From a phage, in sequence record PZ445437.1: a DNA stretch of 64,000 nucleotides. One strand, written 5' to 3'. A model generated the notes under the pieces. That model saw nothing but the letters and a program-made list of their open reading frames with translations, ran no database searches and was not told where the DNA came from. Below are positions 2,218-55,079 of the stretch, piece by piece. Position 1 is the first letter of the stretch. Each line of letters begins with the position of its first letter. The translations under genes and the position numbers were made by a program.

Positions 2218-2678
2218 TAGTAAAGGTCCTCAGAGTAAAGTTCTTTTTCACTACCACCACGTTCAATACGTACTTGTCCGGCATAAGTTGCAATAATCAT
2301 TGCTTCTTCACGTGTCCAATAATTACTATATTGGTCAATAAATCCTTGGTCATCATCACAAACTTGCTGAGTAACTAATTGAGGTTTAACTACATCTAAA
2401 ACTTCTGCCATATCTTTAGAATAATGACGAGCACCTGGAATAATAAGAGTTCGTCCATCTTTTAATTTAAAGCGATTTGCTGCACAGACAATTCGTCGTT
2501 GATACTTTTGGTTTTCATCCCAATATGCAGTCTGCCAACAGATTTCAGGAACTTCTTTCAGAATATCTTCTTCTGTGCATTTATAACCATGCGCTTTAAA
2601 TTTTTGAACAAGACTCTCCGGAGTCTCACGAGATAAAGGAACATTCAGCATTTTTAAACGATTGATAAATGGGTTCAT
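2217..2678 (-). CDS. Hypothetical protein (153 aa)
   Basis: Long ORF, ATGA-type overlap with the downstream gene; no motif recognised. Confidence 0.5.
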
Positions 2679-3004
2679 TTAAACCATCCTTTAATACGCT
2701 GCCACAAAGTTTTCTGTTGAGCTTTGTTAACACCAATTGAGCGAATAACTGGTTGAGATTCCTGGAATTCTTTATAATCAGCAAGGTAAATTTCGTAAGC
2801 TGCATCCGTAAATGAACTTATCGCTGCCATAAAATTATTGCGAATACCTACTGGAGCATCTTTACTTTCACGAATAATCATGTATTTACCAGTCTTAATC
2901 TTTACGATAGTTCCAAGATAAGCTCCATGATACCAGATGTCCCACCCCTCTTGAGTGGGTTCTGCACAACGACGAAGTTCATTGACAATTTCTAACTTGT
3001 TCAT
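2675..3004 (-). CDS. Hypothetical protein (109 aa, motA.1 position)
   Basis: ORF immediately downstream of motA in the same operon. Confidence 0.5.
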
Positions 3005-3014
3005 TATTTATTCC

Positions 3015-3650
3015 TCACAGTTCAGATGCTACAGTGATTACAGCTTCAATGTTTTCTGCCGAGCGTTTAATGTCAAGATACACATTACCGTTTTTAGCGA
3101 TTTTACATGACATTCCGATATCAGTAAATTTCTGAATATGATGTTCCATCATTTTGTATCCAAAAATTCGCATATTTCCATTGTTGTTAATTTCAAAATT
3201 ACGAATTCCGTGAGTGCGTTTTTCTAAAATAGCGAGATAGTTACTGCGATAAGTTTCAACCTTTTTAAGAACAAATCCATTTTCATCTAAAAGTTTTAAC
3301 ATGAGGTCTTTATCTTCTTCCATATCGGAAGTAATCTCACGAGCTTTACGAGTTGCTCGTTTTTTCAGTAGTTCCGGAGCATTTTCCTGTGCGTATAAAG
3401 TTGCTGCATTTGAAATAATATCCTGAGCTTCACCTGTAATGATTAATCCATCACCAGATTTCTCCACCAGGCCTTTTTTAATCAATACCCCAATATTACT
3501 ATTAACTACTGCGTTACCTAAATCTGGATGCACCTCACGAACTTCTGCAGCTGTAATGAAATCTTTCTTAGCAATGGTAATTAAAATCGCAGCAGTTTTT
3601 TCATTCAGAACATCGTTAGAAGCTTTGATGATGTAAGTTACTTTAGACAT
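3015..3650 (-). CDS. motA: MotA middle-transcription activator
   Basis: 211 aa; MSKVTYIIKASNDVLNEKTAAILITIAKKDFITAAEVREVHPDLGNAVVNSNIGVLIKKGLVEKSGDGLIITGEA... matches my recollection of T4 MotA. Confidence 0.9.
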   Translation of the reverse strand: MSKVTYIIKASNDVLNEKTAAILITIAKKDFITAAEVREVHPDLGNAVVNSNIGVLIKKGLVEKSGDGLIITGEAQDIISNAATLYAQENAPELLKKRATRKAREITSDMEEDKDLMLKLLDENGFVLKKVETYRSNYLAILEKRTHGIRNFEINNNGNMRIFGYKMMEHHIQKFTDIGMSCKIAKNGNVYLDIKRSAENIEAVITVASEL

Positions 3651-49918: not shown

Positions 49919-50033
49919 ATTTTACCCTTAATTGATTAACCAAGCATTGATAAGCACTAAACTATATTGCGAATAAAATTCTGGACCAAAATGAAAAATC
50001 ATATCATTTATAGTATCCATAATGTAATTCAAT

Positions 50034-50504
50034 TTAATCATGTGTCCACACCCCATCGGTATTTGACCAAAGTCGCTGATTATCTGATCCTCGCCACAGC
50101 TTTTTAGTCGGAAGATTTTTCTCATACTTCCCATCAATAATAACATCAACATATTTAAGCATTTCTAGTTGTTTAATATCTTCAAACTTATATCCTGTCC
50201 ACAACCAAATGCTTTTATTGGGATAAAGATTTTTAATAGTTTGAACCACAGAGTGAATCACGTCTCTGTTATCAGGATAAAGAGGGTCACCTCCGGTTAT
50301 AGTCAATCCTTCTATATAATCATTATTCAAACATTCAATTAATTGTTCTAGTGTTTCACCAGTGAATGGAACACCATTTCTAGCATTCCATGTTGATTTA
50401 TTATAACACCCTTCGCATTTATGCAAACAACCTGTAACGAAAAGAACTGTCCTGCATCCAGGACCATTAACAAAGCAGCACGGGTATATTCTGTCATAAT
50501 TCAT
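50034..50504 (-). CDS. nrdG: Anaerobic ribonucleotide reductase activase NrdG (radical SAM)
   Basis: 156 aa, the length of T4 NrdG; Cys cluster CLHKCEGC. Confidence 0.88.
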   Translation of the reverse strand: MNYDRIYPCCFVNGPGCRTVLFVTGCLHKCEGCYNKSTWNARNGVPFTGETLEQLIECLNNDYIEGLTITGGDPLYPDNRDVIHSVVQTIKNLYPNKSIWLWTGYKFEDIKQLEMLKYVDVIIDGKYEKNLPTKKLWRGSDNQRLWSNTDGVWTHD

Positions 50505-51333
50505 TTATATATTTCCAATTATAGCCTTCAACACTTTTACGTTCGCCATTTAAACATTTTAAAATATTTCCTTTGCTAGAAATATTAAAATATTTTGCTG
50601 CGTCTGGTATATAATTAAATGTTTTTAAAAGAACACCATCTTTATATGCGCCAAATAAATTAAGAGTATATTTTTCTCGAAGACGCTGATGTTTCCTTTT
50701 CATAACCTCAGGATTTGCATACGCCAACTTCAATGAATTTCTGTGTTTTTCTTTTACTTCAGGTTTTTGCATTGCTAACTTAGTTAGCCTGGAAATTTTA
50801 TTTCTAACTTCGTCAGTTTTCATTGCATTTGACAAATTTAATAAAGTTTTATTTCTAACTTCAGGTTTTTGCATTGCTAGCTTAGTTAGTTCTCTATGTC
50901 TTTTTCTAAAATCGTCATCCTTCCATATATTTTTCGATAATTTTGACATAGAGCGGTGAAATAATTCCTTTTCACTGGAATACAATTTAAAAATTTCATC
51001 CAATTCATCCGCATTAAATCTATCGGTATTCGAGTTTATCATTCTATGAAAGGCATAACACATTTTACTATTGCTTGTTTTAGCTAAATAGTAATGAGCT
51101 AACGCATGGTCATAATATGACAAATTAACAATATTCCATTTATCTGTTTTATATTCAGGAAATATAGATTTGGGAAGCACGTGATGTGCTTCCGTTTTTC
51201 CTTTTATTTTAGGATTATTATAATTTTTTGTTATCAAATCAACATATGACAATAGTAAATCATTATTTTCTTCAAATATTAAAGATAATTTATCATTCAC
51301 AAAATCGCAAGGATAAAATCTATCATAATTCAT
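50494..51333 (-). mobile_element. mobE: HNH homing endonuclease gene (MobE-like) inserted between nrdD and nrdG
   Basis: 279 aa with HNH motif (EAHHVLPKS...NIVNLSYYDHALAH); position matches T4 mobE; first 14 codons nearly duplicate the nrdG 5' end. Confidence 0.7.
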
Positions 51334-53147
51334 TGGTGTTTAACCCTATGCATGATTTCTTTATTTTTACCGAGATTAAATCCGCGTTCGTTCGGATTTC
51401 CCAAATAACCACATGTTCTTCTTATTGTGTTCATCTTTTTAGGATCAGTTTCTCCACAAATAGAACAAACAAATCCGTTTTCAGTAGGAGTCATTTCATG
51501 GGTACTTCCACATGTAAAACATTTATCTACTGGCATATTAACACCAAAATAATCTAAATGTTGTGCAGCATAATCCCATACGGCCTCAAGACCCTTTAAG
51601 TTATTTTTCATATCAGGAAGTTCAACATAAGAAATGTGACCACCTGTCGCAATGAAATGATATGGCGCTTCACGAGAAATCTTTTCAAACGGAGTAATAT
51701 TTTCTTCTACTGAAACGTGGAAACTGTTAGTGTACCAGCCTTTATCGGTAACATCTTTTACACTTCCATATTTTTCTGTATCAAGTTTACAGAAGCGATA
51801 ACAAAGGTTTTCAGCAGGAGTAGAATACAAACTAAAAGCAAACCCAGTTCTTTCAGTCCACTGTTTAAGACGAGCATTCATTTTAGTTAAAATTTCTCGT
51901 CCAATATCACGACCTACAAGAATATTCAATTCGTGAATACCAATGTATCCTAGAGACACTGAACTTCTGCCATTTTTAAATAACTCAATTATATCGTCAT
52001 CAGGTTTAAGACGAACCCCGAATGCACCTTCTTGGTAAAGAATAGGAGCAACAGTTGCTTTAACTCCTTTTAAGGAACTAATTCTACACATCAAAGCTTC
52101 AAAACACAAATCCATTCGCTCATTGAACAATTCGATAAATTTCTGTTCATTGAACTGTGTTCCAATATAAGAATCTAATGCGATACGAGGAAGATTCAGT
52201 GTTACAACACCAAGATTATTACGTCCATCAAGAATTTCATTACCAGTCGAATCTTTCCATACGCTCAAGAAACTACGGCAACCCATCGGAGAAACAGGAA
52301 CAGATGAACCAGTGATAGCTTTATTGTTCTTAGCTGAAATAATATCAGGATACATCCTTTTGCTTGCGCACTCTAGAGCAAGCTGTTTAATATCATAGTT
52401 CGGATCGTCTTTATAAAGATTAACACCTTCTTCAACAAACATAACAAGCTTAGGGAAAATAGGAGTTATCCCATCACGACCAAGACCTTTAATACGATTT
52501 TTCAGAATTGCTTTCTGAATCATTCGTTCAGTCCAGTCAGTTCCCGTACCAAATGTAATTGTTACAAAAGGCGTTTGTCCGTTTGAACTAAAGAGAGTAT
52601 TTACTTCATATTCATAAGCTTGGAATGCATCGTATACATCTTTTTCTGTTTTAGATTGAGCATAATTCAGTGCATCGGCGATTTGCCATTTTTCTGCATC
52701 CTCAATATGTTTTGCATAGGTGCGTTTAACATAAGGAGAAAGTACTTTATCTACATTAGCAAAAGTCGTTCCGCCGTATTGATGGGAAGCAACCTGTGCA
52801 GTAATTTGTGCCATAATTGCAGTAGCAACTCCAATTGATTTAGGAGTTTCAATCTGCGCATTACCAAGCTTAAATCCGTTCTCAAGCATTCCTTTTAAAT
52901 CTACTAAACAGCAATTAGTAAAAGGCAATGATATACTGTAATCTAAATCATGAAAATGAATTAATCCAACATTATGGGCATTTACAATATGACTTGGAAG
53001 AATACGACAAGCGATATGTTTAGAAACAATACCGGCCATTAAATCTCTTTTTGTTGGAAAGACGCGAGAATCTTTGTTGGCGTTTTCTGTATTTAATTCT
53101 TTATCTTTATTTGAAATAAAATTTAAAACATCTTTTTCTAAAGACAT
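51330..53147 (-). CDS. nrdD: Anaerobic ribonucleotide reductase NrdD (glycyl radical enzyme), uninterrupted
   Basis: 605 aa, the length of T4 NrdD; C-terminal glycyl-radical motif RRTCGYLG; no intron. Confidence 0.92.
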   Translation of the reverse strand: MSLEKDVLNFISNKDKELNTENANKDSRVFPTKRDLMAGIVSKHIACRILPSHIVNAHNVGLIHFHDLDYSISLPFTNCCLVDLKGMLENGFKLGNAQIETPKSIGVATAIMAQITAQVASHQYGGTTFANVDKVLSPYVKRTYAKHIEDAEKWQIADALNYAQSKTEKDVYDAFQAYEYEVNTLFSSNGQTPFVTITFGTGTDWTERMIQKAILKNRIKGLGRDGITPIFPKLVMFVEEGVNLYKDDPNYDIKQLALECASKRMYPDIISAKNNKAITGSSVPVSPMGCRSFLSVWKDSTGNEILDGRNNLGVVTLNLPRIALDSYIGTQFNEQKFIELFNERMDLCFEALMCRISSLKGVKATVAPILYQEGAFGVRLKPDDDIIELFKNGRSSVSLGYIGIHELNILVGRDIGREILTKMNARLKQWTERTGFAFSLYSTPAENLCYRFCKLDTEKYGSVKDVTDKGWYTNSFHVSVEENITPFEKISREAPYHFIATGGHISYVELPDMKNNLKGLEAVWDYAAQHLDYFGVNMPVDKCFTCGSTHEMTPTENGFVCSICGETDPKKMNTIRRTCGYLGNPNERGFNLGKNKEIMHRVKHQ

Positions 53148-53959
53148 AATTCTAATTTATCCTTTTGAAATTCTTCGTCTAAATATGGGTTCCAACCCAT
53201 TTTAAACCTTTTGATGAAATTATCAATTCTAAATTTCGGTAAGTTTAAATCCGCAAAAATAGATGATTTACTTTTAAAATCTGGACTTAAATAATCATAT
53301 AAAATTTCTGCGTATTTTAACCATAATATACAAGTACCAGATTTAATTGCTCTCGGAGTTTTCCAAGGTTTTACACCATACATCGGATTTCCGCTTCCTT
53401 TATGCCTGATAGAAGATGAAATTCCAATTTTAATTTTAGCTTCCTTTGTATGCGAAAATCCACGATGTGGATTTTCTTTCCAGTATTTTTTAGAAGCTTC
53501 TGATATTTTCTTTCTGGCTAAATTAGTATGATGCTTTCCATAAAATCCATGATTTTTGCCTTTATTACGATTTCTTTTAATCATGGTTATTGATTGCTTT
53601 TCTCTAGTTTCTTTAGAAGGAGAAATACCATATGTCGTAAATTTGCCATCAGCATATGCTAAATTAAAATACTCTTTATTCCATACATCTTTTTCTATAT
53701 TCTTTTGAAATTCAGCTTCAATGCTAGTTATTTGTTCATCTCCGACTAATTGAAAATATAATATTTCAACTTTCGGCGTTTCTTTCAATAAGGCTTTTTG
53801 AAATTCGGAAGATGACGAAGACGAATAATAAAATTTACCATTTTTATCAATAATATTCGTTCCATCAAAAGTGCAATTGGTTTTACTTCCAATGTAATAA
53901 TATGGTGGGGTTTTAGCATTAATTCTATTAATAAATGATAGTTTATATACTACATTCAT
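53138..53959 (-). mobile_element. GIY-YIG-type homing endonuclease-like gene (Seg-like, 273 aa)
   Basis: N-terminal VYKLSFINRINAKTPPYYYIGSKTN (GIY-YIG-like) and NUMOD-like repeats (GKNHGFYGKHHT, HRGFSHTKEAKIKIG, GSGNPMYG); 3' end overlaps the nrdD start. Confidence 0.55.
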
Positions 53960-54429
53960 TTTAAACTCTTTCTAAGCTGCTTCTTAAATGAAGCTATTAA
54001 TTGTGTTTTAGTGTCAGATTCATTATATTCAAATCCTCTTTGAAGCATCTCAGCCATCATTTCCTCTTTTCCTAAACGAGAAAATTCCTTTGATTTATCT
54101 CCAACGAAGTTAGGGTGAATATTATTTTGGGTGTAATCGGATTTTAAATAAGTAAGTAAATTTTCTAACCATTCAAGATAATCAACTCCTTGTCCCTTTA
54201 AGCCAGAACGATTAAATTTATGCTTCATTTGACCTTCTGCGGCATTGCAGAGATTACAAAGCAATCCACGTACCTTTCCTGCTTTTGGTCCATTTAATTC
54301 ATGGTCATGGTCGAGGTGATTAGCTTGAACATCAGGATTTAGTTCTCGTTGGCAAATTAAGCATTTACCATTTTGTGCATCATAAAATTTCTGTTTTTCT
54401 TCTTTATATAATTTGCCAGTCAATAACAT
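53956..54429 (-). CDS. 49: Endonuclease VII (Holliday junction resolvase) gp49
   Basis: 157 aa, the length of T4 gp49; zinc-binding Cys pairs and HLDHDH motif. Confidence 0.85.
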   Translation of the reverse strand: MLLTGKLYKEEKQKFYDAQNGKCLICQRELNPDVQANHLDHDHELNGPKAGKVRGLLCNLCNAAEGQMKHKFNRSGLKGQGVDYLEWLENLLTYLKSDYTQNNIHPNFVGDKSKEFSRLGKEEMMAEMLQRGFEYNESDTKTQLIASFKKQLRKSLK

Positions 54430-54471
54430 AATAAAACCCTTACCTTAAATAGATAAGGGTATTTATTATTT

Positions 54472-54975
54472 TCAAGTATTGTAAAACATTTGATTCAATC
54501 GCTTATATTGCCGAATCTTTTGGTCAGAAAAAGAAATTTGGGTTTCAAGCCATTCAATATATTCTGCCGCAGCTTGCATCAAATTTCCTTCATAGCCATC
54601 GTTATTTTCTTGTGCAGCTAATTTAGCTAATGCGTATGGAATACGTTCACCTTGAAAATCGGCTTTAGGCTTCTGAACAACTTGATTAGTTCTCTCTACA
54701 ACTTCTTCAATTTCGCCATTTTCTACTGATTCAGTATTCCACAAGCACCAATACGTAATTGGCTTATCGTAGATGTTAATAATCTTTCCGTCGGAAAGTT
54801 CAATTTCAACAATTCCAGTATCAGGTTCTATATCATCTTCACATTCTTTTGCAAGTTCACGAACTTTAAAGACAGTACCTGCGCTAAGTTCCGGCCAGTA
54901 ATTACATAGCCCTGTATCAGCACGATTAATTCTAAACCACTTATCTACTGTAATCATGTCCCATCTCCATATCAA
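54472..54975 (-). CDS. Hypothetical protein (167 aa, pin position)
   Basis: ORF between nrdC and 49. Confidence 0.4.
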   Translation of the reverse strand: MIWRWDMITVDKWFRINRADTGLCNYWPELSAGTVFKVRELAKECEDDIEPDTGIVEIELSDGKIINIYDKPITYWCLWNTESVENGEIEEVVERTNQVVQKPKADFQGERIPYALAKLAAQENNDGYEGNLMQAAAEYIEWLETQISFSDQKIRQYKRLNQMFYNT

Positions 54976-55079
54976 TTAAGTCATTTATCGTTGGTTCATT
55001 ATATACTGTTTCTTCATCAGTGTAAACCGGTTCTTCCGGCTCTGGTTCTACAGTTTCCCATCTAGACGCCCACCAAGGT

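Follow-up and report, generated by a model that had tools for sequence, protein, structure and literature searches.

A free-standing SegG-clade endonuclease gene between gene 49 and an intron-less nrdD in a T4-like phage, and the recoded nrdD segment linked to it

At the junction of gene 49 (endonuclease VII) and nrdD in a phage genome (sequence record PZ445437.1), analysed here as a single stretch of 64,000 nucleotides that is called the window throughout, lies an intact open reading frame (ORF) of 273 codons and 822 bp (53138-53959, minus strand), referred to below as seg. Homology, architecture and distribution together place it in the T4 Seg family, and the domains recognised in its product, a GIY-YIG domain followed by NUMOD3 repeats and a C-terminal region with a SegG-aligned tail, identify it by sequence as a free-standing homing endonuclease gene of the SegG clade. 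The junction is polymorphic among related phages, and the gene has been found in 49 phage records, in every copy between gene 49 and nrdD. Moreover, the alignments argue that more than the ORF is mobile, the unit consisting of seg and the 5'-terminal ~240 nt (80 codons) of nrdD. It is this co-travelling stretch of nrdD, which the initial annotation had not noted, that is new here.

The reading favoured here, to which we assign a probability of roughly 0.65, is that seg encodes a free-standing Seg endonuclease that would spread by intronless homing, cutting the 5' region of seg-less nrdD and sparing its own genome by means of the recoded stretch. Intronless homing is established for SegF, SegG and SegE (PMC2988022). 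In outline, a promoter-less cassette would have been placed exactly at the T4 nrdD start, where the ribosome-binding site that formerly served nrdD, behind gene 49, would now serve seg, and translation of nrdD would restart from a site within the 3' end of seg. During mixed infection, the enzyme would bind a seg-less nrdD and cut it at some point within the first ~240 nt of the gene, and the break would be repaired from the seg-bearing genome, with gene 49 and the part of nrdD beyond nt 240 supplying homology on the two flanks. Such repair would copy in both seg and the recoded, uncuttable 5' segment of nrdD and leave the resulting carrier genome immune. Sequence comparison establishes the domains of the protein, the polymorphism of the site and the linkage and limits of the cassette; catalysis, the position of the target and immunity are deduced from these.

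The seg gene and its product

The genes between 49.9 and 55.1 kb of the window all lie on the minus strand, in the order pin, gene 49, seg, nrdD, an HNH gene and nrdG, and many Tequatrovirus genomes match this 5-kb region at 95-98% identity. The upstream flank, gene 49 (53956-54429, minus strand), encodes a protein with 100% amino acid identity to T4 gp49, in which Pfam recognises Endonuclease_7 and the dimerisation domain (1e-22 and 1e-33). Its TGA stop codon is overlapped by the ATG of seg at 53959, forming an ATGA (53956-53959, minus strand). The T4 nrdD gene starts at the gene 49 stop in the same ATGA manner, and seg occupies that exact spot. Further, the sequence 5' of the ATG, including the ribosome-binding site, is the same in T4 and in the window, and seg thus inherits the former nrdD ribosome-binding site. 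At its other end, seg overlaps the start of nrdD by 10 nt (53138-53147, minus strand), its TAG (53138-53140) lying 7 nt inside nrdD, the ATG of which is at 53147. The nrdD gene itself (51330-53147, minus strand; Pfam NRDD, 5e-171) is an uninterrupted ORF of 605 codons. In T4, the annotation of nrdD joins two exons across an intron that contains the I-TevII gene, whereas the window's nrdD runs on without a break across nt 538, the counterpart of the T4 intron site. ORF, flanks and overlapping stop and start codons thus agree with the initial annotation, which had described a Seg-like free-standing gene between gene 49 and an nrdD that, unlike that of T4, is intron-less.

The nuclease domain is where the relationship to T4 SegG is most readily seen. 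Pairwise BLASTP aligns the two proteins at 40% identity over 128 aa (E 4e-27), which covers the whole nuclease domain, while tblastn against phage genomes finds residues 1-126 to be ~40% identical to T4 SegG (2e-17), and PHROG 7504, described as 'homing endonuclease', matches residues 1-125 at 2e-34. The GIY-YIG catalytic domain (residues 1-105; 53645-53959, minus strand) has the alpha/beta fold of this class of nucleases, with V3-V4-Y5 and Y22-I23-G24 in the places of the 'GIY' and 'YIG' strands, which in such enzymes lie about 10-17 residues apart; of these residues, Y5, Y22 and G24 do not vary within the SegG clade. E83 and N99 correspond to the metal-binding Glu and to the Asn that follows it, and align to E75 and N90 of I-TevI, since IEAEF (80-84) pairs with I-TevI IEREN and YFN (97-99) with GYN; E81/E83 and N99 are invariant or nearly so. 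Overall, the residues invariant in the clade (Y5, R12, P19, Y22, G24, K26, N28, S47, E81 and N99) are all kept.

Downstream of the nuclease domain lie the NUMOD3 repeats (residues ~115-190; 53390-53617, minus strand), a minor-groove DNA-binding linker. The Pfam model NUMOD3 (PF07460) reaches 29.7 bits (cut-off 20.4; E 6e-7) in two stretches, the best being residues 130-153, which bears out the NUMOD-like repeats proposed initially, and a profile of the seg family matches the DNA-binding domain of I-TevI (1I3J) at 3e-5 in the same region. The C-terminal region (residues ~195-273; 53141-53377, minus strand) is presumed to be the sequence-specific DNA-binding module. Its tail, ...F-x-x-GWNPYLDEEF, lines up in the multiple alignment with the tails of SegG and of its orthologue P0004; BLASTP of the seg protein against SegG gave no significant C-terminal match, and the structure model of the last ~80 residues is of low confidence (pLDDT 35-55). 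A single-sequence search of PDB sequences with the seg protein gave no match.

Comparison with characterised endonucleases

T4 SegG, the product of gene 32.1 between genes 59 and 32, is the closest characterised relative, with the 40% identity over the nuclease domain given above. It is listed as an active free-standing GIY-YIG endonuclease with gene 32 as its target (PMC2988022, Table 1). The two proteins share the clade motifs MN-VY...R...PPYYYIGSK-NC...SS...E...YFNL-YA and, by multiple alignment, a GW-P--D-E tail. The likeness extends to the way in which the genes are placed, as SegG is also a promoter-less cassette directly upstream of its target gene and co-converts flanking sequence (PMC2988022). 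They differ in site (49/nrdD for seg, 59/32 for SegG), in the ~60 extra residues with NUMOD3 repeats that seg has and SegG lacks, and in that the target of SegG is known whereas the target and the activity of the seg protein are predicted.

I-TevI, encoded in the T4 td intron, resembles seg in the NUMOD3 region matched through 1I3J and in the modular nuclease-linker-DNA-binding design. Unlike I-TevI, seg is not intron-encoded; the two proteins are ~20% identical, and the seg protein has no zinc finger, draws no Pfam GIY-YIG match and, in its predicted model, carries a short beta-hairpin-like insertion in place of the helix that bears R27 and H31 in I-TevI. I-TevII, from the T4 nrdD intron, targets the same gene, and its carriers also have recoded flanks (~8 synonymous changes 3' of the site). 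It is, however, intron-encoded at nrdD nt 538, absent from the window and, at 25% alignment identity to seg, not closely related. SegH of phage U5 and T4 mobC are described, in what PMC2988022 cites from Sandegren et al. 2005, as nucleases of the nrdD-nrdG interval. As far as that citation goes, they share with seg that they are free-standing nucleases targeting anaerobic ribonucleotide reductase genes, but they lie on the 3' side of nrdD and seg on the 5' side, and it is by this described position that seg is set apart from SegH.

Distribution of the cassette

Among the 49 records with seg, those listed share 97.6-99.5% nucleotide identity, and so many near-identical recurrences show that the ORF is not a chance product. 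An uninterrupted T4-type 49/nrdD junction was found in 630 records with a 400-bp probe across the T4 junction, so that ~7% of relatives carry seg and 93% are without it; the gene is evidently not a fixture of essentially all relatives at this position, a possibility that had been raised at the outset. In the 44 Tevenvirinae loci retrieved via gp49, nrdD, where it follows gene 49, begins either directly at the gene 49 stop or no more than a few codons from it, with two carriers as the only exception, and this near-universal direct abutment indicates that the empty site is ancestral. In some of these loci (L007-L011, L016, L017, L020, L022, L024, L027, L031, L032 and L039-L045) nrdD was not detected within 4 kb downstream of gene 49, and adjacency of the two genes is therefore not universal in Tevenvirinae.

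The carriers span two genera, Tequatrovirus (MLP2, fPS-2, G8) and Mosigvirus (AV111, ST0, AV109), and the nrdD intron is present in some of them (G8, fPS-2) and absent in others. Carriers vary, too, in the presence of the HNH gene. A search of IMG/VR for further lineages of the module gave only the two known carriers and paralogues, and a single metagenome scan added one more seg copy, at 97%. Many GenBank records already call the gene 'homing endonuclease'; a literature search found no paper naming or characterising a seg gene at 49/nrdD.

Paralogues of the SegG clade occupy other sites: P0003 lies at gp5/5.1, the SegG orthologue P0004 at 59/32, P0005 near the DNA polymerase gene and P0006 inside denV. 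Being at other sites, they carry no information on the nrdD target. In L067 (2175-3967), P0006, a SegG-clade protein of 255 aa with an I-HmuI NUMOD-like C-terminus, is encoded between two Pyr_excise (denV-like) ORFs and may split a denV-like gene.

The recoded 5' segment of nrdD

The segment that accompanies seg comprises nt 1-240 of nrdD (52908-53147, minus strand) and presumably represents a form of the target that resists cleavage. Over these positions the window is identical to L002, L005, L052 and L055 (0 differences) and 95-96% identical to four other carriers. Against every seg-less allele, those of T4 and of the seg-less Mosigvirus-like loci included, identity falls to 64-65% (83-86 differences), and it jumps back to 95-100% at nt 241. 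A database search with the 240-nt tract returned 49 records at 95% or more, one at 80-90% and 928 at 60-80%; that exactly 49 records reach at least 95% shows the tract variant to be fully linked to seg. Beyond the boundary (nt 241-1818), carriers are 95.0-96.1% and non-carriers 96.6% identical to the window, and since carriers are no closer than non-carriers there, the cassette is decoupled from the backbone. At the protein level, the tract alters ~35% of the first 80 NrdD residues. No donor phage for it was found, the best non-carrier match being at 72-75% identity in Klebsiella phages.

A second and much more distant lineage gives a view of the same module. The closest non-identical seg homologue, P0002 (59% identity), comes from L049, a metagenomic contig of 4.7 kb whose phage is only ~68% identical to the window. 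The order there is gp49, a 55-codon remnant of the resident nrdD, the seg homologue and a complete nrdD, with the ATG of the seg homologue overlapping the preceding TGA; the remnant thus stands between gene 49 and the seg homologue (L049 2188-3180). The 55-codon ORF is 72% identical to L035, the nearest relative, which equals the backbone divergence, and the module is inserted inside nrdD, near nt 165, not at a gene boundary. The first ~240 nt of the complete L049 nrdD are 70% identical to the window's tract as against 62-64% to L035 and T4, while from nt 238 the gene is 87% identical to L035. That the L049 tract is closest to that of the window indicates that seg and the nrdD 5' segment were kept together over a long divergence.

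Within the tract, nt 91-105 of nrdD, CCAACAAAAAGAGAT (PTKRD; 53043-53057, minus strand), form a candidate immunity block. In all seg-less alleles, the L049 remnant included, FPTQRD is invariant at this place and the nucleotides follow CC.AC.CA(A/G)CG.GA, whereas both seg-linked alleles, that of the window and the independent one of L049, read FPTKRD and have the change C97A (Q33K) in common. On the strength of the alignments, C97A (Q33K) is proposed as a candidate immunity change. The substitution (CAACG to AAAAG) alters the first base of a CNNNG pentamer, and CNNNG is the cleavage motif of I-TevI. It is only a pointer to a cleavage site, given that such motifs are common by chance and that the relevance of this motif to the SegG clade is conjectural.

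Another observation concerns the 3' limit of the tract. In the Tevenvirinae contig L035 (4468-7227), nrdD is broken after ...LPFTNC by ~900 bp that read on in frame as CFSRNTRFITTTG..., an insert that looks like an intein. Codon ~80, the conserved point at which it lies, is also where the recoded tract linked to seg stops.

Homing, relic or passenger

Several points weigh against homing by an active enzyme directed at the 5' end of nrdD, and they concern the protein, the integrity of the copies and the meaning of the linkage in turn. To begin with, the enzyme activity and the cleavage site of the seg protein are predictions from sequence. A comparison between profiles, of the SegG-clade domain and of canonical GIY-YIG sequences, lends moderate support (E 1e-4, probability 56%), with YYIGS aligned to VYVGS, IEAEF to IEREN and FNL to YNI. 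The Pfam GIY-YIG models (PF01541, PF19835) give seg no match at E up to 10, and NCBIfam offers no usable GIY-YIG match either. The control proteins are instructive in this respect: with Pfam, T4 SegG has no match, I-TevII is sub-threshold and I-TevI scores 2e-18, and since SegG fails in the same way, the missing match marks a limit in the sensitivity of the models and does not count as evidence against the assignment. The GIY-YIG label of the initial annotation therefore holds by SegG homology and fold, but not by a Pfam match. Moreover, neither MAFFT nor hhalign shows a counterpart of the conserved Arg (I-TevI R27), in the place of which stands TNCTFDGTNIIDKNG. T4 SegG is likewise without an Arg equivalent to R27, and the missing residue thus characterises the whole clade and does not indicate decay; the clade-invariant R12 and K26 might serve as substitutes.

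Some copies are damaged as well. Those of Escherichia phages Pu-Krd-SF3 and SF4 share a truncating 1-nt insertion, and in L049 the gene is split, the GIY-YIG N-terminus (a 50-aa ORF, 2352-2504) standing apart from the rest (222 aa, P0002), either from a frameshift or from a sequencing error. In L053 (Pu-Krd-SF4; 2501-3323), where seg is annotated as 738 bp, four in-frame stops appear in the window's frame, as in a decaying copy.

Such observations could be taken to mean that seg is a relic, left by an earlier invasion and now in decay or inactive and no longer able to cut DNA, that persists because its deletion would remove the translation start or promoter of nrdD. The absent canonical catalytic Arg and the frameshifted copies in SF3, SF4 and L049 would fit a relic, as would pairs of copies in which nonsynonymous changes are about as many as synonymous ones, and the ribosome-binding site of nrdD and a promoter-like site do sit within seg. 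Across the changed codons of seg, about half are synonymous, and there are fewer replacements than neutrality predicts, which suggests purifying selection on the ORF. Further, the ORF is intact in seven of the eight carriers examined, tblastn matches are full-length in 47 of the 49, every residue invariant in the SegG clade is kept, Glu and Asn included, and the active SegG has the same non-canonical features. The cassette is, in addition, more uniform than the backbone and occurs in two genera, which argues for recent spread. A relic is accordingly regarded as unlikely.

The linkage itself could be read in more than one way. The tract may hitch-hike, being too diverged for recombination within it, in which case its linkage to seg is no proof that the target lies inside; the module is known from two lineages only; and the left boundary of co-conversion is, as far as the alignments go, not defined by the identity jump in gene 49. 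Relative to the window, gene 49 of the Mosigvirus carriers has ~80% identity over its first ~400 nt and ~96% beyond, and a boundary at that point was considered and rejected, as the seg-less L014 and L015 show the same jump.

An active homing endonuclease could, then, have its site across the uninterrupted 49/nrdD junction, as intron-encoded enzymes have theirs across the insertion point, or within gene 49. The insertion would destroy the site, and the 240-nt tract would be a historical passenger from the original donor. The position of seg exactly at the ATGA junction suits this idea, and a tract of 64% identity, which cannot cross over internally, would stay linked whether it is the target or not. 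Set against this, the free-standing endonucleases of T4 characteristically cut hundreds of bp from their own gene (PMC2988022), the L049 module follows codon 55 of the resident nrdD and not the junction, and both seg-linked tracts have stayed with seg over ~30% divergence and share Q33K in an otherwise invariant block. On balance, a target at the junction or in gene 49 appears improbable, and a target within the 5' segment of nrdD is preferred.

It is also conceivable that the seg protein, instead of promoting its own spread, has taken on a host-beneficial function or a regulatory one; it might, for instance, bind DNA to repress the nrd operon, or be a weapon against competing phages. Precedents can be named: I-TevI doubles as a transcriptional autorepressor (PMC2988022; PMC10448857), and SegB is reported to help the phage evade a bacterial defence (PMC13096335). 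Nothing in the locus points to a regulatory or defensive role, and a gene missing from 93% of relatives fits such a role poorly, so that co-option is considered most improbable.

Returning to homing at the 5' end of nrdD, a more far-reaching version of it can be formulated, which we put forward tentatively and at somewhat less than even odds. Seg and the first 80 nrdD codons would form an old endonuclease-plus-immunity module that moves as a unit between T4-like lineages down to 68% nucleotide identity, each time overwriting the N-terminus of an essential enzyme (~35% of residues differ). The endonuclease would thereby drive chimerism within the nrdD coding sequence, and Q33K would mark its cleavage or recognition site.

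Expression signals and neighbouring genes

Near seg, no match to the T4 late-promoter consensus was found, and the gene appears to be co-transcribed with gene 49. Three candidate expression signals can be proposed, all of them weak. The first is a predicted RNA hairpin, AAUGAAUGUAGU...ACUAUCAUUUAU (53925-53965, minus strand), that encloses the seg start codon; the 81-nt fold over the AUG has z = -2.9 against shuffles. It recalls the hairpins by which other T4 endonuclease genes keep their ribosome-binding sites sequestered. The second is a sigma-70-like promoter match, TTGATA-16-TAAAAT (53199-53226, minus strand), found by a consensus scan in the 3' end of seg, ~50 nt upstream of the nrdD ATG. 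The third is AAGGA, the new putative ribosome-binding site of nrdD, which lies within seg, 12 nt from the nrdD ATG.

The remaining genes of the region include pin (54472-54975, minus strand), beyond gene 49, and, on the other side of nrdD, a second, unrelated mobile nuclease gene. This is a Mob-type HNH gene of 279 aa (50494-51333, minus strand; PHROG 655, 5e-37) in the nrdD/nrdG interval, the position of mobC in T4, followed by nrdG (50034-50504, minus strand). The initial annotation had labelled it mobE-like. Its identity to T4 proteins is 38% over 60 aa for MobC and 32% over 72 aa for MobE, in each case over the HNH motif only, and it is thus equally distant from both. Orthology to mobE was rejected on this ground and because the gene sits at nrdD/nrdG and not at nrdA/nrdB; the label is better replaced by one that names the T4 mobC position. 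Full-length copies occur in ~31 records, and Yersinia phage PST annotates the gene as mobC.

The first 39 nt of the HNH gene match the first 39 of nrdG in phages without it (39/39), which indicates that the start of the resident nrdG survives as a remnant to which the HNH gene is fused. The genuine nrdG that follows is recoded at its 5' end (9/39 nt differ, D10C included), which suggests that the target of the HNH enzyme lies within the ~40 nt at the start of nrdG. The HNH gene with its recoded nrdG has the same architecture as seg, namely a nuclease gene plus a rewritten target. Within a collection of 50,697 phage genomes, no record carries the seg cassette together with the window's 840-bp HNH gene, and the best cover of a 5-kb query (50000-55000 of the window) is 84%, each of the top matches being without one of the two nuclease genes. 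The window's pairing of mobile nuclease genes is thus unique in that collection.

At the intron site of nrdD (nt 500-600; 52550-52650, minus strand), the window's allele matches those of other intron-less phages, whereas intron-bearing alleles (T4, G8) have ~8 synonymous changes in the 25 nt directly 3' of the site. By its sequence at this site, the window's phage resembles a susceptible recipient for the I-TevII intron. The proposal that the nrd locus is a hotspot for mobile nucleases holds well, as three different nucleases are found there in different phages: seg 5' of nrdD, the I-TevII intron at nt 538, and the HNH gene or mobC at nrdD/nrdG.

Conclusions

Marker exclusion, and much of the mosaicism of T-even phages, can be traced to free-standing homing endonucleases, only a few of which have mapped targets. 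The element described here is of a well-known kind and the gain is incremental, the added value being a defined module of endonuclease plus recoded target. The sharply bounded 240-nt recoded stretch, together with the nrdD remnant in L049, confines the predicted target to codons 1-80 of nrdD, and the predicted position of the cut should be easy to test. Overall, each of the three unrelated nuclease genes of the nrdD-nrdG locus comes with its own rewritten copy of its presumed target sequence. An appreciation of such recoded targets should aid the reading of mosaic boundaries in these genomes, which might otherwise be mistaken for ordinary divergence.

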